A stretch of DNA of 64,000 nt from a virus (taxonomy: Duplodnaviria; Caudoviricetes): IMG/VR virus record IMGVR_UViG_3300020576_002141, positions 1 through 64,000 of that record, one strand, 5' to 3'. Made by a program: the position numbers and the translations under genes. The notes under the pieces were generated by a model that saw nothing but the letters and a program-made list of their open reading frames with translations, was not told the origin of the DNA and searched no databases. Positions 3,722 to 22,365 of the stretch are shown in pieces; the stretch's first letter is position 1, and every line of letters starts with the position of its first letter.

Positions 3722-4486
3722 ATGAATAATAAAACTTCAGCAAACGACCTATCTTTAAGTATTCATAAAATATACAAGAAGTATAATATGAAGGAGTACT
3801 ATAAAGAATATTGTACATTGATGTCGGAATATGCTTCTAAAGAAGTAAGTGACAAACTGCACGCTTGCATGGTTGAAAATAACAACTTAATGGGAATCCA
3901 TAGTATTGTTAAAGATTTCATAAATGGTACAACCTTGTCTGATGAGCTGGCTCAAGAGTTTATAGACAGGGCCGCGTTGATACAAACTCGTTATCCTTTT
4001 TTGGATTACTGTAAGGAATGTATTGTACTTAGAAGAAAATTCCTGAACGAGAGATCTGATTACTTCTACAATACCATACAATCTCTAAAGATAGTCAAGG
4101 AATCCCCAAATGAGGAAGCAAACGATGCCTATTCTTTTCAAGATGCCCTCCTTGCTAAATGGATAGATAACTCTATAAAAAAGACCTATCCAAAAGGAAT
4201 GCAAATCAAATATGAAGATTTGACTGGAAAGATAAACACAATATATGCTATTCATAAAGAATCTACATTTGACACAGAATTTTCAGAAGCTCAACTTATA
4301 GACAGATATTCTGGAATATGTTTATTCGATTCGTTTCTTCTTCATTCTTTTTACGACACGCTGACCCATAAGTGGGTATATGTACCACTGGCTCTAATAA
4401 TCGATATGAAATCGGATTATATTACGGAGTTATTGGAAAGCATGAAAGAAGAAACAACAGAAGAAGAAGATGAAGGAACAGTATGA
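3722..4486 (+). CDS. Hypothetical protein inserted between gp44 and gp62; C-terminus weakly WYL/SH3-like
   Basis: Long ORF; likely ATG at 3722, 8 nt after TAAATA (3708-3713). Its stop overlaps the gp62 start. Confidence 0.75.
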   Translation: MNNKTSANDLSLSIHKIYKKYNMKEYYKEYCTLMSEYASKEVSDKLHACMVENNNLMGIHSIVKDFINGTTLSDELAQEFIDRAALIQTRYPFLDYCKECIVLRRKFLNERSDYFYNTIQSLKIVKESPNEEANDAYSFQDALLAKWIDNSIKKTYPKGMQIKYEDLTGKINTIYAIHKESTFDTEFSEAQLIDRYSGICLFDSFLLHSFYDTLTHKWVYVPLALIIDMKSDYITELLESMKEETTEEEDEGTV

Positions 4487-4875
4487 ATCCATTTGATTTT
4501 GTAAATAGTGTTAATGTCTCTAAAGAAAATGTTATAGAAAGAAATCCTGAATGTGAGAAAGATTACATACCATATTTAATAAATAAAGCTATGTCTTATT
4601 TTCCTGATACGGTATTCTATTCTCAACAAATGAATGAAAATTCTCATATAGATAAGAGACTACAGTATGAGTATTTTCTAAATTCGGTTTCAAAGAAACC
4701 AAGATTCAGTAAATGGGCAAAGGTAGAAAAACAAGAAATACTGGAATGTATTAAACGAAGATACCATTATAGTGACACCAAAGCCAGAGAAGCCATAAAG
4801 TGCCTTACTGAAGATCAGATAAAAGAGATACTAGCTGCGGAAATGACTGCGGATGGTAGTTTCGAAATGGCATAA
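4483..4875 (+). CDS. gp62: Clamp loader small subunit
   Basis: MNPFDFVNSVN...DYIPYLINKAMSYFPDTVFY...KKPRFSKWAK. Confidence 0.93.
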   Translation: MNPFDFVNSVNVSKENVIERNPECEKDYIPYLINKAMSYFPDTVFYSQQMNENSHIDKRLQYEYFLNSVSKKPRFSKWAKVEKQEILECIKRRYHYSDTKAREAIKCLTEDQIKEILAAEMTADGSFEMA

Positions 4876-15756: not shown

Positions 15757-17496
15757 ATGTCCAAAAAGAAGGGTTCCAAGGCGGATGCCTTAGTTGGCGA
15801 TAATATGATGCCAGTTGAACCTGTACTACAGAAAGCCAGCTTTCCAGGTGTAATCGTTTCTGCTAAAAATGAAGGACAGAAGGAAGCCATACGAACAATA
15901 GAAACACATGAAGTTTCTATTCTATCAGGCGTTCCGGGAACAGGCAAAGCACAACCTCTCGATTCTACAATTTATACCCCAAACGGTAAAATGAGGTTTG
16001 GTGATATCAGGGTAGGAGACGATGTTTGTACCCCCGATGGAAAAACTGCTAAAGTAATAGGTATATACCCACAAGGAAAAAAAGAAGTATATAAAATTAC
16101 ATTTAAGGACGGCAGTACAGTAGAATGTTGCCTGGAACACCTGTGGAAAATATACTTTAAAAACAACAAACATAAATCCCGGATAGTAGATACCAAGTAT
16201 ATTTTAGAAAATTTTAATAGAAGAACAATATCTATAGAGGCTACCAGACCTGTAGATTTTGCCGAAAGTTCAGTATTAATTCCCCCTTATTTGTTGGGTT
16301 TACTATTAGGAGATGGTGGATTTTCTAACTCTAACATAACACTCACAACAGCCGACGAATCTATTGTTGTTGGTGTTCGATCTATCTTGTCTGAAAAATA
16401 TCAGTTAAAAATCAAGAAAAATTCGGAAATAGATTATAGGATAGTAAAAACAGAAAAAACTTCTAGTAAAAACGAATATAAAGATGCGCTACGCATATAT
16501 GGTCTTTGGGGATTAAAATCCAACGAAAAACACATACCTCATCCATATCTTTATGGTTCAATAGATCAACGCAAAGATTTATTGCGGGGATTGATGGATA
16601 GTGATGGCTGGGTGGAGAAGAACGGGCAGGTTTGCTATTGTTCTACATCAAAGCAACTTATAGAAGACTTTACAGAATTAATAAACTCGCTTGGTGGAAG
16701 AGTATACCTGCATTCTTCTATACCCTCATACAGATATAAGGGCGAAAAGAAATATGGAAAATTGTGCTATACCGCATCCATTGTAATAGATAACCCCGAA
16801 GATTTATTTACTCTCGAAAGGGAAAAAATCCGAATAAAGCCAAGGAGAAAGTACTTTTCTAAAAATATTATTAGGAGTATAGAGAAAATTGGTGAAAAAG
16901 AATGCCAATGTATTATGATTGATTCGCCGGATCATCTATATTTAACAAACCATTTCATACCTACACACAACACCCACCTCGCAGTAGGTTTGGCTCTAAA
17001 AGATCTCTTTGCTCGAAAATATGAAAGAGTCATCTTGACTCGTCCGTATGTGGAAGCAGGAGAGCACCTTGGCTTTTTGCCGGGTGGTTATAATAATAAA
17101 ATCGCACCCTTTATGTATCCCATCGTAGAGATTATGTCTCAATATATAAAAAGCAAAGATTTGATTACGAAACTTATAGATAACGGAAATATCTCTGTTG
17201 TTCCTTTGGCTTATATGAGAGGGTGTACATTCAAGAACTCTTTTGTAGTAGCAGACGAATGTCAGAATACAACTGTATCTCAAATGCGAATGCTTCTTAC
17301 TAGAATAGGTGACAACTCAAAGTTAGTCATCACCGGTGATGTGGAACAATCAGATATTGGATATAAAAACGGTCTTATGGATGCCATAGACCGTCTTCAA
17401 GATATCAAGGAGATTGGATTTCACAACATGGGAGAAGAATGTTGCGTAAGATCTGGCATAGTAGCCAAGATCGAAATGAAGTATAGAAATAAGTAA
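15757..17496 (+). CDS. phoH: PhoH-family ATPase interrupted by an intein
   Basis: Spliced extein reads GVPGTGK/THLAVG...ILTRP...PLAYMRGCTF...DECQN...TRIG...GDVEQSD. Confidence 0.95.
   Translation: MSKKKGSKADALVGDNMMPVEPVLQKASFPGVIVSAKNEGQKEAIRTIETHEVSILSGVPGTGKAQPLDSTIYTPNGKMRFGDIRVGDDVCTPDGKTAKVIGIYPQGKKEVYKITFKDGSTVECCLEHLWKIYFKNNKHKSRIVDTKYILENFNRRTISIEATRPVDFAESSVLIPPYLLGLLLGDGGFSNSNITLTTADESIVVGVRSILSEKYQLKIKKNSEIDYRIVKTEKTSSKNEYKDALRIYGLWGLKSNEKHIPHPYLYGSIDQRKDLLRGLMDSDGWVEKNGQVCYCSTSKQLIEDFTELINSLGGRVYLHSSIPSYRYKGEKKYGKLCYTASIVIDNPEDLFTLEREKIRIKPRRKYFSKNIIRSIEKIGEKECQCIMIDSPDHLYLTNHFIPTHNTHLAVGLALKDLFARKYERVILTRPYVEAGEHLGFLPGGYNNKIAPFMYPIVEIMSQYIKSKDLITKLIDNGNISVVPLAYMRGCTFKNSFVVADECQNTTVSQMRMLLTRIGDNSKLVITGDVEQSDIGYKNGLMDAIDRLQDIKEIGFHNMGEECCVRSGIVAKIEMKYRNK
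15949..16971 (+). mobile_element. 341-aa intein with LAGLIDADG (DOD) endonuclease; Ala1 start and class 3 W-C-T signature
   Basis: Starts AQPLD directly after the Walker A Lys and ends PTHN before Thr+1. Block B CCLEHLW, block F CQCIMI; endonuclease motifs LLGLLLGDG and LRGLMDSDG. Confidence 0.93.
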
Positions 17497-18254: not shown

Positions 18255-19109
18255 TTAATACTCTCCAATATGCTCCATCAAATACTTCATTCCATATTTG
18301 ATAAAATAGTCAATCATTCTACTTCTGTCCTTCGATTCAGAAGATTCATACATATTTATAATTTTCTCTTGTATGTCTTGCGGAATACACTCAAAATCAA
18401 TCAAAGTCCTATTCCGAGCATAATTTTCTGGATTTTCAAGGTTTCTTGTCCAATCCGAGTCGTTTAAGAATGACTGGTAGAGCATGTCTACCTTCTTGGA
18501 GCTAAGAGATCTTTGACGCTTTCCTTCTACTTCAAAGGTATCGTCATCTGATAATATGTTAGGAATACCATCGGATGTATCACCGCGCAGCACATGCTCA
18601 AAGAGGTACTTTGCTGGATCATCGCTGGATATCTGCTTCTTTAGAATAGGACTATATTGATGTACATTTCTGTATTTCTGAAGCTGTACGAAATCTGTAT
18701 CAGAGCTTATAATCTGTATTGCTTCGCCACCTGCGTAGTTTTTACAAATAACAGCTATCAAATCATCAGCTTCGCAATTTTCTAAGTGAAGTACCTTATA
18801 TGGCATAAACTCTTTCATTTCCTCTCTTACTTTAGAAAGGAAATCAAACAGCTTCTTCCAATCAAAATCCGATGTTTCTCGATTCTTTTTACGGTTGGAC
18901 TTATAGTACTTATAGACACTCTTTCTCCAAGAGTTATGTCCATCGTAGCACAAAACAATCTCCCCATAGGTTTTTGATTGCTTTTGCTTTATTGTTCTTA
19001 ACGTATTCAAAATAATATGTCTAATCAGATTTTCATCATAGACTGGGCTGCCTTTTGATTCGGCCATGATCCCGGCTATGGTTATCTGATTCATGTCAAC
19101 AAGTATCAT
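18255..19109 (-). CDS. rnh: RNase H / 5'-3' exonuclease (T4 rnh, FEN-like)
   Basis: MILVDMNQI, LCYDG, CEADDLIA, ISSDTDFVQL, LRGDTSDGIPNILS. Likely start is MILVD at about 19109, overlapping the upstream stop. Confidence 0.94.
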   Translation of the reverse strand: MILVDMNQITIAGIMAESKGSPVYDENLIRHIILNTLRTIKQKQSKTYGEIVLCYDGHNSWRKSVYKYYKSNRKKNRETSDFDWKKLFDFLSKVREEMKEFMPYKVLHLENCEADDLIAVICKNYAGGEAIQIISSDTDFVQLQKYRNVHQYSPILKKQISSDDPAKYLFEHVLRGDTSDGIPNILSDDDTFEVEGKRQRSLSSKKVDMLYQSFLNDSDWTRNLENPENYARNRTLIDFECIPQDIQEKIINMYESSESKDRSRMIDYFIKYGMKYLMEHIGEY

Positions 19110-20302
19110 CAATATACTCCAAGAATGATCGTATCTTCGTTTATTCTTCCAGAACATTCATAGGAAGATGTTTTTATAGAGTCCAGAGAACTTTTAACAG
19201 CTCTGATACCCTTGTCTTTGATCTCTTTCATAAACTCTGCGGGTTTTCTTATTTTCTTTGTGTAGGATTTAGAGATAGATGAATCAAAGTCGATAATAGT
19301 GCTTCCCTTGATGGATAGCCCGTGCGAGCTGTTGGCTTCTATAATAGTAGCCTTTGCTGACTGGGTGTTATACAAAAGTACTTTTTCTGCTCCTATTATC
19401 TTAGTAGGAGAAAGAGACTTAATCCCAAGAGTCTTATCTTCTTGTTGATACTTGACTTTCTTGCACATATCGACAGGAGACTTCTTTCTCTTCTTACGTA
19501 TGGTTATAGTCTTATTGGCTTCACCATACTGCTTACATGAAAGAATAATCTCATTGAGAAAATCTTTGTACTCCTTGATTCCTGCTTTAGAATAGCAGGA
19601 ATAGGCATTTTCTTTCATGTCTTCCTCGAACAAAGATAAAACACCAGTAAACCAAGATGCGATTTTGTCACATTGGTTTGGCTTTACGTTCTTTGTATGT
19701 AAGATATCTTTTACAGTTATAGTTTTTTCTTGCTTCTTTTGAACCTTTTTGCTAGCTATCTCTTCTTTCTTTTGTTCAAATATAGCTATACTGGATATAC
19801 CAGAACTGACTGTTTCTAGCTTGGTGTCAGCCATTTTCTCTAGATCACCTATGACTCCATATATTTTCTCGTTCGTTCTTTCTCTTATGGAGATAACAGG
19901 TTCGGTAGTTTCTACTGCTTCCTTTGGTTTACTCTTTTCTTTGTTTATTAAATGAGTTAAGCACTTATTCAAAGAATCTATATCTTCTTTTCTAACAGGT
20001 GCTCCCAGTGAAAGCATTCGGCACATCATGCCTACATTAAATCCATACAAACCAGGAATATCCCCATATTTAATGGAGATATCCATATTTTGAATAGATT
20101 GAATATCTTCCTTTGAAAACTTATTGGACTTCATGTATTCTATAGTCCACTTTTTACATTCAGAATCACTGGACATATAGTTATACCAAGAGAATGCTCT
20201 TGCTAAAGCACAATCTCTATCTACATCGGTTTCGAATTTTTCAGTCCAAGTGGGTTCGGTGCCATAATGGACTACTTCAGTATTTATTGCTTTTTTAGCC
20301 AT
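19109..20302 (-). CDS. Conserved hypothetical early protein of T4-like environmental phages
   Basis: 397-aa ORF behind a sigma70 promoter; N-terminal GTEP-W...AFSWYNY and C-terminal KKIRKP...GRINEDTIIL. Confidence 0.8.
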   Translation of the reverse strand: MAKKAINTEVVHYGTEPTWTEKFETDVDRDCALARAFSWYNYMSSDSECKKWTIEYMKSNKFSKEDIQSIQNMDISIKYGDIPGLYGFNVGMMCRMLSLGAPVRKEDIDSLNKCLTHLINKEKSKPKEAVETTEPVISIRERTNEKIYGVIGDLEKMADTKLETVSSGISSIAIFEQKKEEIASKKVQKKQEKTITVKDILHTKNVKPNQCDKIASWFTGVLSLFEEDMKENAYSCYSKAGIKEYKDFLNEIILSCKQYGEANKTITIRKKRKKSPVDMCKKVKYQQEDKTLGIKSLSPTKIIGAEKVLLYNTQSAKATIIEANSSHGLSIKGSTIIDFDSSISKSYTKKIRKPAEFMKEIKDKGIRAVKSSLDSIKTSSYECSGRINEDTIILGVY

Positions 20303-20335
20303 ATTTCTCGATCTTTACTAAAACTATACATATAT

Positions 20336-20363
20336 AGTATATGTTCAAATAATGTAAAGTCAA
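20336..20363 (-). promoter_or_regulatory. Sigma70-type promoter (leftward)
   Basis: Minus strand TTGACT-N16-TATACT. Confidence 0.65.
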
Positions 20364-20386
20364 GTGAAAAAGAACTATAGTTTCAG

Positions 20387-20414
20387 TTGACTTAAGATTT
20401 CTGTTGACTATACT
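20387..20414 (+). promoter_or_regulatory. Sigma70-type promoter for the tRNA cluster
   Basis: TTGACT-N16-TATACT. Confidence 0.65.
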
Positions 20415-20452
20415 ACTATGTTCGTGTTTGATAAATCGAACACAGAATGCTT

Positions 20453-20521
20453 TGCGAGAAGTCTTGGTAGACAAGTGGCCTCATAAGCCACCCAAAGAAG
20501 GTTCAACTCCTTCTCTCGCTA
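20453..20521 (+). tRNA. tRNA with CAT anticodon (Met or Ile2), short D arm, T1:T72 mismatch
   Basis: Acceptor (T)GCGAGA/TCTCGC(T); anticodon stem GTGGC/GCCAC with loop CTCATAA; T arm GAAGG-TTCAACT-CCTTC. Confidence 0.75.
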
Positions 20522-20532
20522 TTCGATATTTA

Positions 20533-20603
20533 CATGGTATAGCATAAACAATGCATGTTCTCTTATGAAGAATACGATGTGGGTGTAACTCCCGACTACC
20601 ACC
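20533..20603 (+). pseudogene. Degenerate tRNA-like element with TAT (Ile) anticodon
   Basis: D stem GCAT/ATGC; anticodon stem GTTCT/AGAAT with loop CTTATGA; T loop TGTAACT; only a 5-bp acceptor. Confidence 0.45.
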
Positions 20604-20627
20604 GGACTCAGTCCGGTATAAGTATCT

Positions 20628-20660
20628 GAGTTTATAGTCAGGCCAACGCCGTATAAACTT
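20628..20660 (+). ncRNA. Hairpin RNA motif, copy 1 (core GTCAGGCCAACGCCG)
   Basis: Outer stem AGTTTATA/TATAAACT encloses GTCA-GGC-CAAC-GCC-G; 21 nt identical to copy 2. Confidence 0.55.
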
Positions 20661-20675
20661 ATTATAAAATACTAT

Positions 20676-20746
20676 GCGCTCATCGTCTAAGGGCAAGGCA
20701 TACCCCACGGAGGGGTAAAATATAGGTTCGAATCCTGTTGGGCGTA
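20676..20746 (+). tRNA. tRNA with atypical anticodon loop CACGGAG (nominal CGG, Pro; A33)
   Basis: Acceptor GCGCTCA/TGGGCGT; D stem GTC/GGC; anticodon stem TACCC/GGGTA; T arm ATAGG-TTCGAAT-CCTGT. Confidence 0.65.
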
Positions 20747-20762
20747 GCAACAATAGTATAAA

Positions 20763-20795
20763 GAAGTTATAGTCAGGCCAACGCCGTGTAGCTTC
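20763..20795 (+). ncRNA. Hairpin RNA motif, copy 2
   Basis: Outer stem GAAGTTATA/TGTAGCTTC has a different sequence but keeps its pairing around the same 15-nt core. Confidence 0.55.
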
Positions 20796-20801
20796 ATTAT
20801 T

Positions 20802-20833
20802 GCCCCCATAGTTTAGTTGGCTAGAACATCCGT
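20802..20833 (+). pseudogene. 5' half of a tRNA (acceptor 5' strand, D arm, anticodon-stem 5' strand); no 3' half found
   Basis: GCCCCCA-TA-GTTT-AGTTGGCTA-GAAC-A-TCCGT parallels the 5' half of the downstream tRNA-Asp. Confidence 0.65.
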
Positions 20834-20849
20834 AAAACTGAACAACGTA

Positions 20850-20900
20850 TTTATACCCTAAATAGTATATATCGAGTTCGATTATTTAGGAGCGTATAAA
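20850..20900 (+). promoter_or_regulatory. RBS-sequestering hairpin with a late promoter core (CTAAATA) in its 5' arm
   Basis: CCTAAATAGT (20857-66) pairs with ATTATTTAGG (20881-90); TTTATAC pairs with GTATAAA. AGGAG lies at 20888-92. Confidence 0.65.
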
Positions 20901-20901
20901 G

Positions 20902-21585
20902 ATGAAGTATCAGGAAATGATTGAAGCCAAAAAGCTTCGAAAAGAAGAAGGTATGTCTATCACCGAAATAGCAAAAAGACTCAATGTTGCTAAAAGCAGC
21001 GTTAGTCTTTGGGTGCGAGATGTTCCTTTAACACCAAAACAGCAACGAGCCTTATTAGATAAAAATCCCATTCACAATAGACAATTAAATGGATCAAGAG
21101 TCAGAAAAGAAAATGCGAAAAAATGCAGAGTTACGTATCAGGAGGAGGGTAAAGAAAAGGCTAAAGAAAAATCTTGGTTACATATGACGGGCTGTATGCT
21201 TTATTGGGCGGAAGGTTCAAAGGGGCGAAATGGTGTAGGATTTTGCAATACCGATGTACAAATGATGAAGCTTTTTATGAGATTTCTTCGAGAAGAAATG
21301 AAGATAAATGAAGATAAATTTTGTTTTAGTATTAATATGTACGAAAACAATGGAATAACAGTCGAAAATGTCGAAAATTTCTGGTTAGATCAACTATCTC
21401 TTGATAAAAAATGCTTACGAAAATCTAGAGTTAATAAGTTACCGAAATCCAGCAAAGGATATAAAAAGAATAAGCATATTTATGGAGTTGGAAACATAAC
21501 AGTTAATGATACACACTTAGTTCAACATATTTATGGTGCTATACAAGAGTATGGTGGTTTCATAAATGAAATTTGGATAAAATAA
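20902..21585 (+). mobile_element. N-terminal HTH plus LAGLIDADG-like (LYWAEG) putative homing endonuclease
   Basis: HTH GMSITEIAKRLNVAKSSVSLW; GCMLYWAEGSK...FCNTD...LFMRFL resembles a single LAGLIDADG helix; located among tRNAs. Confidence 0.65.
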
Positions 21586-21590
21586 TTTTC

Positions 21591-21665
21591 GGGGCAGAAT
21601 ACAAAGCGGATCGAGTAACATGACTTTCAATCATGTCATAATGGGTTCAAGTCCCATCTGCCTCA
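21591..21665 (+). tRNA. tRNA-Glu(TTC)
   Basis: Acceptor GGGGCAG/CTGCCTC; anticodon stem CATGA/TCATG with loop CTTTCAA; T arm ATGGG-TTCAAGT-CCCAT. Confidence 0.88.
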
Positions 21666-21693
21666 TTTACAGTTTGAATAGGGAAAAAATATT

Positions 21694-21882
21694 ATGAAAA
21701 ATACTTCTTATCGTACCCGTGTTAGTATCCGTAGCAGTCAAACTCCGAGATTCTCGGGTGAGCTTATTCGTATGGAATATGATCACCGCTTTGGTGAGCA
21801 ATATTTAATCAAAACGTATCATCCAGATTGGGGCGAGGAATATTTCTGGATGAGAGAGAACGAAGTTAGATTTCAACGCTAA
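21694..21882 (+). CDS. Small hypothetical protein, 62 aa
   Basis: ORF fills the gap between two tRNAs; purine-rich leader. Confidence 0.6.
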   Translation: MKNTSYRTRVSIRSSQTPRFSGELIRMEYDHRFGEQYLIKTYHPDWGEEYFWMRENEVRFQR

Positions 21883-21888
21883 CTTATT

Positions 21889-21960
21889 GGCTTCATAGTT
21901 TAAATGGTAAAACATCTGTCTGTCTAACAGAAATCAGGAGTTCAATTCTCCTTGGAGCCG
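21889..21960 (+). tRNA. tRNA-Asp(GTC)
   Basis: Acceptor GGCTTCA/TGGAGCC, G73; anticodon stem TCTGT/ACAGA with loop CTGTCTA; T arm AGGAG-TTCAATT-CTCCT. Confidence 0.92.
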
Positions 21961-21975
21961 TTTGAGGAAAATATT

Positions 21976-22365
21976 ATGACGAACTATATTACAAAAGATT
22001 TGAGTCCAAGAATAAGAAGATGTAATCTAGAACACGAAGAGAAATGGGCCGAATGGCTCAACAAGATACCATCCTTTTCTTTCTCGAATAAAGTATTCGT
22101 TACTATTATACCACCCTTTGGTGGTGCTCTTGCTCGCTTCCGAGTTACATTAAAATCAGACCAGAGCGTATCTGTATCTGTTTATTTGGATGTAAATGAA
22201 TCTCTTGGATATTACGATGGAAAGCCATATTGGGAGATTTACCCAGACATCACCAATGATGCTCAAAGATTTGATTTCAAAGACACAGATGGAGTAATAA
22301 AATCTGTGATGAAATCTCTAAATAAGCAACATAGGGAAAACACAAAAGGAAAGTGTTCGCCGTAA
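21976..22365 (+). CDS. Hypothetical protein
   Basis: ATG at 21976 after GAGGA. The track's TTG start lies inside tRNA-Asp and is not used. Confidence 0.7.
   Translation: MTNYITKDLSPRIRRCNLEHEEKWAEWLNKIPSFSFSNKVFVTIIPPFGGALARFRVTLKSDQSVSVSVYLDVNESLGYYDGKPYWEIYPDITNDAQRFDFKDTDGVIKSVMKSLNKQHRENTKGKCSP

Follow-up and report, generated by a model that had tools for sequence, protein, structure and literature searches.

A short hairpin recurs in the tRNA cluster of an uncultured T4-like phage and in related metagenomic phage contigs. The sequence comparison makes it clear that the hairpin is a real RNA element of which both the fold and the tip sequence are under selection. The reading that we consider best, with a rough probability of 0.4, is a punctuation hairpin that is recognized by a protein in a polycistronic tRNA transcript and that would guide or protect endonucleolytic processing.

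A repeated hairpin in the tRNA cluster

The stretch of DNA that was analyzed (the window, 64,000 nt) belongs to an uncultured T4-like myovirus and carries genes for gp43 DNA polymerase, a baseplate wedge protein, RNase H, gp59 and gp33. Cyanomyoviruses are the nearest named relatives, with a DNA polymerase identity of 49%. The completeness of the 75-kb virus record to which the window belongs was estimated by CheckV at about 42%.

The 21-mer TTATAGTCAGGCCAACGCCGT was found in exactly two copies on the + strand, at positions 20632-20652 and 20767-20787, spaced by 135 nt. Both the exact count and the comparison with shuffled sequences confirmed this part of the original prediction. When up to 3 mismatches were allowed there was no third match in the window, nor any match in 100 shuffled sequences. 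Elsewhere in the 75-kb record the 15-nt core is absent. Each 21-mer forms the heart of a 33-nt hairpin (Table 1). The outer stem of the hairpin is AU-rich and 9 bp long, an internal loop places GUCA opposite one G, and 3 bp of GGC/GCC carry the CAAC loop. The closing stem had been predicted to be 8-9 bp long and to differ in sequence with its pairing kept, which proved to be correct with the stem now extended to 9 bp. Of the stem pairs that differ between copy 1 and copy 2, two have both bases replaced and three a single base, and pairing is intact. The hairpins are not accounted for by any ORF.

The + strand RNA of copy 1 folds with an energy of −10.1 kcal/mol (z = −3.5) and that of copy 2 with −11.4 kcal/mol (z = −4.2), and for both copies the fold was equalled by 0 of 200 shuffles. 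The two hairpins were also retained when the RNA of the whole 486-nt cluster was folded. Due to the presence of several G-U pairs in the stems the minus strand of the hairpins folds worse, with z = −2.0 for copy 1 and −0.7 for copy 2. The G-U pairs therefore assign the structure to the sense RNA, i.e., that of the transcribed strand. Copy 1 has AUU immediately after the stem, within a 15-nt AU-rich leader that precedes the next tRNA. Copy 2 is located 16 nt past an atypical tRNA and is followed by AUUAUU.

Table 1. Coordinates of the hairpins and of neighboring features of the tRNA cluster in the window.
Feature	Position	Strand	Description
Promoter-like site, sigma-70 type	20387..20414	+	TTGACT-16-TATACT; 10/12 matches
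5' leader hairpin	20424..20443	+	centroid fold; between promoter-like site and tRNA-Met
tRNA-Met (CAU)	20452..20522	+	first in cluster; ARAGORN; Rfam tRNA 33.6 bits
Degenerate tRNA-Ile(UAU)-like stretch	20536..20620	+	ends in hairpin CCGGACUCAGUCCGG (20601-20617); aligns with tRNA-Ile of L148
Motif copy 1	20628..20660	+	9-bp stem GAGUUUAUA/UAUAAACUU; GUCA opposite G; tip GGC-CAAC-GCC; covariance model 64.4 bits
Atypical tRNA between the copies	20676..20746	+	ARAGORN: Pro-CGG; anticodon loop CA-CGG-AG
Motif copy 2	20763..20795	+	9-bp stem GAAGUUAUA/UGUAGCUUC with two G-U pairs; core as copy 1; covariance model 67.4 bits
Second tRNA-Glu	21591-21665	+	past the 227-aa HTH ORF

Copies in related phages

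Relatives of the window phage were reached through the gene for a 397-aa protein that adjoins the tRNA cluster, on metagenomic phage contigs. Six more copies of the motif were found on three of these contigs, three in L148, one in L149 and two in L158, so that the family comprises 8 copies on 4 contigs, in which the paralogs are non-independent samples. L148 encodes a 397-aa protein identical to that of the window, is devoid of the 227-aa ORF, and harbors one copy in each of the three successive spacers of the series Ile, tRNA-like, atypical tRNA and Glu. Window copy 2 differs from its L148 ortholog only in the loop (UAAC in L148), and the L148 copy precedes an intact tRNA-Glu. In L149 the neighbor protein is 76% identical and a single copy precedes an atypical tRNA. 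For L158, which is the same contig as L168, the identity of the neighbor protein is 43%. Here two diverged copies follow a tRNA-Asp and enclose a 52-nt stretch that is not a tRNA, and no tRNA is present 3' of either copy. The proposal that the copies bracket an atypical tRNA thus holds for the window and for L148 and fails for L158. All copies are on the sense strand within the tRNA cluster and are preceded by a sigma-70-like promoter.

The motif was absent from L150-153 (59% identity), where one spacer has a different hairpin, and from L154-161 (apart from L158) and 80 further relatives with an identity of 39% or lower. The covariance model R1 returned its six training copies and weak matches, one of them real (L158/L168); about 130 loci from more distantly related phages were negative. 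No convincing match came from a looser structural scan, and blastn with the region as query yielded none among 50,697 phage records. The exact core GTCAGGCCAACGCCG had >119 single matches without context in IMG/VR. These and the matches of longer or degenerate core patterns (0-1 in IMG/VR, 3 in JGI metagenomes and 47 in GTDB genomes) were rejected as chance matches, as they occur without stems or tRNAs in GC-rich or coding DNA, e.g., in a 290-aa ORF of L198.

The hairpin GGCAAACGCC of L159 and L160 is a plain bidirectional terminator rather than a copy of the motif. Unrelated hairpins were observed in the long spacer preceding tRNA-Ala or tRNA-Asp in L150 (4662-4706 rc), L151 (1984-2031 rc) and L161 (3577-3640 rc). 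This phage group may thus generally carry hairpins in its spacers, their sequences being specific to each clade.

Covariation of the stems and conservation of the tip

In the six close copies, those of the window, L148 and L149, all 72 of 72 cells are paired and four pairs are altered on both sides. A control in which the register was slid lowered pairing to 31-49% of the cells. The covariation score was 0.59 versus 0.26 in shuffles, and this value was reached by 0 of 500 shuffles. With all 8 copies aligned in structural register, which involves a 2-nt shift for the L158-type copies, the 9 outer and 3 tip positions are paired in 96 of 96 cells. Once the L158 copies are included, the first tip pair shows a switch of both sides from G-C to A-U. 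The signature conserved over the 8 copies is CA-RGC-YAAC-GCY-R, and WUU is found directly 3' of the stem in every copy (8/8). The 3' flanks read AUUAUA, AUUAUU or UUUxxG, and the flanking sequences are otherwise variable.

The flanks identify window copy 1 and L148 copy B as orthologs. These copies differ at 6 of the 18 stem bases and at 0 of the 15 core bases, with all pairs kept. Counted on the alignment of the window and L148, about 3% of the positions differ in tRNA-Met and about 10% in the atypical tRNA. In view of the 43% identity of the neighbor protein in L158, neutral intergenic sequence would not have survived at this distance. The six further copies, the 100% pairing and the compensatory changes support the earlier suggestion that an invariant core with covarying stems reflects selection on an RNA structure. 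From the selection on the tip we infer that some protein or RNase may read the hairpin.

Two changes occur together in the L148-type strain, C20779U in the hairpin loop and G20740A in the 3' strand of the acceptor stem of the upstream tRNA. The segments CCAACG and UGUUGG are able to pair in window-type and L148-type strains alike. The co-change is probably a coincidence since G20740A is already compensated in the acceptor stem by C20681U. A pairing of the loop with the upstream acceptor strand was accordingly rejected; it concerns one copy only and the tRNA change is compensated in its own stem.

Organization of the cluster

The promoter-like site at the start of the cluster is kept in L148, and similar promoters are found at the same place in L149, L150 and L151. 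As judged from its sequence, the site probably starts the tRNA-cluster transcript that contains the hairpins. The leader hairpin has equivalents in L148, L149, L150 and L151, and with its position at the predicted transcript start it may serve as a 5' stabilizer. After copy 2 the cluster continues with the 5' half of a truncated tRNA-Glu gene (from 20802), a 227-aa HTH ORF, the second tRNA-Glu, a 62-aa ORF and a tRNA-Asp. None of the tRNA genes of the cluster encodes CCA, and nucleases must therefore remove the spacers.

The degenerate Ile-like stretch was called neither by ARAGORN nor by the Rfam tRNA model. The hairpin at its end, upstream of copy 1, is the remnant of the T-arm of an extra tRNA-like gene that is present in L148, fused to the Ile-like stretch. 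In L148 this extra gene (4553-4623 rc) has an 8-nt anticodon loop and was reported by ARAGORN as 'tRNA-???'.

The tRNA between the two hairpins has A in place of U33. The anticodon loop of this U33-less tRNA is CA-CGG-AG in the window, CA-AGU-AG in L148 (4417-4490 rc) and GC-GCG-GA in the L149 relative (1-44 rc). The anticodon varies between near-identical strains and the remaining body of the molecule is well conserved. These sequence features suggest that the molecule may have no part in decoding.

L148 has an intact tRNA-Glu (4290-4363 rc) straight after its third hairpin, at the place where the window keeps only the 5' half. In this region of the window (20802-21665) the 5' half is followed by the 227-aa HTH ORF, which has weak matches to HNH/homing-endonuclease-like PHROG families. 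The sequence and position of the ORF suggest that a mobile gene displaced the 3' part of tRNA-Glu and came with a different tRNA-Glu of its own.

All relatives examined carry a small ORF of 57-63 aa (21694-21882 in the window) within their tRNA cluster. The ORF has the motif SSQT..R..GE..R.E.D...G.QYL.KTYH.DWG.EYFWMRE and matched no Pfam or PHROG family. A search for extra contigs via this ORF yielded two, both of which begin just past the hairpin region. Outside the cluster, the product of the PhoH-like gene (15757-17496 in the window) has 579 aa in both the window and L148 and 586 aa in L161, compared to about 240 aa in L150, L151, L154 and L159. The long forms carry weak LAGLIDADG matches. 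Minus-strand promoter-like sites are present at 20661-20689 and 20796-20823, in the same relative place after both hairpins. The conserved ATTATA and ATTATT, read as reverse complements, make up their -10 elements, and the sites are probably a by-product of the AU-rich leaders.

Comparison with known RNA families

Searches with Rfam 15 gave no match at gathering score on either hairpin and none at E ≤ 10 in the region 20300-22000, and there was no match on the L158 copies. This agrees with the original statement that the motif was not recognizable as a known family. ARAGORN and the Rfam tRNA model call the neighboring genes and never the hairpins, which argues against a tRNA or tRNA fragment. 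The fold itself (9 bp, 4/1 internal loop, 3 bp and 4-nt loop) is unlike a minihelix of 7 + 5 bp with a 7-nt T-loop. No intrinsic terminator was detected at the hairpins; the stems are AU-rich and a U-tract is absent. The region 20600-20810 contains no + strand promoter-like site and no terminator, which speaks against a PeSL. The Y RNA family YrlA (RF02553) gave no match at E ≤ 10, and no TROVE/Ro60 domain (PF05731) was found in the 75-kb record, which itself covers about 42% of the genome according to CheckV. Neither a CRISPR repeat nor a solitary repeat unit (RNA anti-CRISPR) is indicated since the stems differ between the copies, and the hairpins had no match to a CRISPR direct repeat. A single-stranded A/U-rich segment beside a structure, as in RNase E-type sites, is present in the form of the WUU in 8 of 8 copies and the AU-rich leaders.

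Several other candidates were rejected. The A-rich tail of a preQ1-I riboswitch is present in two copies only and there was no Rfam match. The domain IV of SRP RNA has GUCAGG in common with the motif, but the 3' side is absent and Rfam again gave no match. A kink-turn does not fit because the 3' strand has only one unpaired base. The late or middle promoter sequence TATAAATA is resembled by just one or two copies. By the features tested, the hairpin is outside all of these known families and represents a new, narrowly distributed motif.

A proposed role in processing of the tRNA transcript

Small RNA, processing signal and decoy were the functions originally suggested for the motif, and we rank the processing signal first. 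In the clade of uncultured T4-like phages that carries the motif, the hairpins would be transcribed as part of the polycistronic RNA of the tRNA cluster, in which a hairpin in the spacer between two RNA units would serve as a cis-acting punctuation mark. The tip and the helix would be recognized by a ribonuclease or by a factor that binds the hairpin. The helix could then position or activate an endonucleolytic cut of the RNase E type in the adjacent AU-rich single strand; alternatively it could shield the released ends from exonucleases. The outcome would be separation of the neighboring tRNA or tRNA-like units. In a study on RNase E, processing of tRNA precursors is described as requiring binding of an adjacent structured element, for which simple stem-loops can substitute (PMC9841416).

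Part of the evidence counts against such a role. No hairpin is present at the tRNA-Met/tRNA-Ile junction (8-13 nt) or at those next to the small ORF, and the element is therefore not required at every junction. In L158 neither copy has a tRNA after it. Furthermore the distance from the hairpin to the tRNA ends varies, from 6 to 16 nt downstream and from 13 to 25 nt upstream. Helix recognition of the RNase E type is not known to depend on sequence. A generic reader of helices leaves the invariant tip unexplained, and we therefore infer an additional contact with a specific protein.

Contigs from wastewater 'metatranscriptomes' (RNA-labelled runs, Logan) cover the whole 3 kb, with genes on both strands. 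The RNA-labelled contigs may therefore be DNA and allow no reading of expression, ends or strand. Window-type and L148-type strains coexist in these contigs.

Possible release as a trans-acting RNA

As the main alternative, the motif could be part of an excised small RNA that acts in trans, the tip binding or titrating a specific host or phage protein as a decoy, sponge or partner. From the sequences we consider this second in probability and somewhat unlikely. Release would occur by a cut of the RNase Z/BN type at the 3' end of the upstream tRNA and by RNase P at the 5' end of the downstream tRNA, which would give an RNA of about 55-75 nt, possibly cooperating with the bracketed non-canonical tRNA-like RNAs. 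Protein-binding hairpins typically show such a near-invariant tip on a stem of free sequence. The transcripts would carry 2-3 copies each, and the spacer would be freed automatically by the tRNAs that flank it in the window and L148. Moreover, every unit enclosed by hairpins is atypical: the tRNAs lack U33 and vary in anticodon between strains, a tRNA-like gene has an anticodon loop of 8 nt, and the 52-nt stretch is not a tRNA. However, the L158 copies are not flanked by tRNAs on both sides, and release by tRNA enzymes is thus not general. The phage record contains no antisense target for the core. A partner was not found either: the 75 kb (about 42% of the genome) have no TROVE/Ro60 gene, and neither YrlA nor any other Rfam family matched.

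The 397-aa neighbor was considered as an RNA partner. This protein (19109-20302 in the window, minus strand) is encoded divergently from the tRNA cluster, has >580 relatives in IMG/VR and belongs to no Pfam family. Its AlphaFold model (pLDDT 81.5, pTM 0.37) gave no Foldseek match at E ≤ 0.001 and only generic helical matches with VIA-align, with a best Z of 8.7. An assignment of the C-terminal domain as Sm-like was rejected, as the weak rows with a probability of 0.13-0.23 are not evidence.

A more elaborate version, which we hold to be unlikely, is a phage 'RNA cassette array' in which the hairpins form the repeats. The hairpins would be handles that are cut or bound by a dedicated protein, and the units would be released as decoys against host defences that target tRNAs. 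The units would then be the non-decoding U33-less tRNA look-alikes with their strain-variable anticodon and other small RNAs. If true, this would be a new way of packaging and processing anti-defence RNAs that resembles a CRISPR array.

Less probable signals on the nascent RNA or the DNA

The hairpins could act in cis on the nascent RNA in another way, as a boxB-like antitermination hairpin or as a pause or folding insulator against mispairing of tRNAs. To this we assign a low probability. The motif recurs, on the sense strand only, along a transcript that is not translated, and it combines a conserved tip with a free stem. The YAAC loops closed by C-G presumably resemble the UNAC/GNRA-like tetraloops that are read by proteins in nut-type sites. 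Yet no boxA-like conserved sequence is found beside the hairpins, the flanks being variable except for WUU, no N-like or Q-like gene was recognized nearby, and most relatives with similar clusters do not have the motif. A boxB-like antitermination system is not known from T4-type phages.

An element that works at the level of DNA is very improbable. It could be a recombination or cassette-boundary site of the PeSL or attC type, or a site for a protein or homing endonuclease in the gain and loss of tRNA cassettes. The region is plastic, with an extra hairpin and tRNA-like unit in L148 and the HTH/endonuclease-like ORF just past copy 2 in the window, and the hairpins bracket variable units. We take the tip to be loosely like the RYYYAAC core of attC sites (6/7). 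Nevertheless, due to the G-U pairs the structure works on one strand only, as RNA, which makes a site in duplex DNA unlikely. The indel between the window and L148 ends outside the hairpin cores, with the T-arm remnant kept upstream of copy 1, and the mobile ORF was inserted within the tRNA-Glu gene and not in a hairpin. Furthermore there is no recombinase gene nearby and the hairpins are without a promoter or terminator of the PeSL type (PMC4122927).

Least probable of all, and disfavored by the sequence comparison, is that the copies are functionless leftovers of a tandem duplication of spacer plus tRNA that gene conversion kept alike: the period of about 135 nt of the window units, the occurrence of copies in neighboring spacers and the inner stem bases of window copy 1, which resemble those of copy A although it is at the locus of L148 copy B and hint at conversion, would suit a mere remnant, but the tRNAs beside the copies are unrelated in sequence and thus not from a recent duplication of units, up to a third of the stem bases have diverged with every pair retained, and the tip is conserved with a compensatory change from G-C to A-U in a phage that is 43% identical at the neighbor protein.

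In the usual annotation of phage tRNA clusters the spacers between the tRNAs carry no meaning, whereas the element described here is a spacer element with clear selection on both its fold and its tip sequence. The motif offers a 33-nt handle for studying how multi-tRNA transcripts mature in T4-like phages, and also on the question whether the bracketed tRNA look-alikes are released as separate RNAs. Its narrow distribution limits the general importance unless a partner protein is found.

Comparison with known systems

The general kind of element is familiar, as structured non-tRNA RNA is known from phage tRNA clusters. In T4 the tRNA precursors are dimeric or multimeric and are cut by RNase P and 3' enzymes, and two stable RNAs, species 1 and 2 (rnaC/rnaD), are encoded by single genes of about 120-140 nt. 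The window resembles the T4 operon in being of a T4-type phage with a tRNA cluster (early-transcribed) and an embedded structured non-tRNA RNA, in having tRNAs without encoded CCA, and in a homing endonuclease gene within the cluster, which in the window is a weak candidate. In contrast to the single genes of T4, the 33-nt hairpin is repeated in several spacers. The originally drawn analogy to these stable RNAs is reasonable. Homology to species 1 or 2 is not likely, and the negative blastn result argues only against close homology. T4 has eight tRNA genes, six of which are in dimeric precursors (PMC11143913), and SegB is placed in the T4 tRNA region (PMC2330249).

PeSLs are similar to the motif in being short, repeated intergenic stem-loops in plastic regions of T4-like genomes (PMC2839356; PMC4122927). 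They are units of a terminator and an early promoter with stems such as A3-4G3-loop-C3T3-4 (PMC4122927), whereas the window motif has no U-tract or + strand promoter, has a stem of free sequence and is inside a tRNA transcript. At 33 nt the motif is far shorter than the YrlA Y RNAs (RF02553), and it does not include a tRNA-like module.

The elements closest in the proposed role are signals of RNA processing. As with the tRNA punctuation and t-elements of organelles (PMC1920247), folded elements in polycistronic transcripts would set the 5' and 3' ends that RNases make. In organelles it is tRNAs, or folds resembling them, that serve as the signals and are cut by RNase P and RNase Z, whereas the window hairpin is not tRNA-like. 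The motif shares with tRNA processing by RNase E (PMC9841416) a structured element beside a single-stranded AU-rich segment in tRNA spacers. In E. coli the element is usually the neighboring tRNA or any stem-loop and conservation of the loop is not needed, whereas the tip of the window motif is near-invariant.
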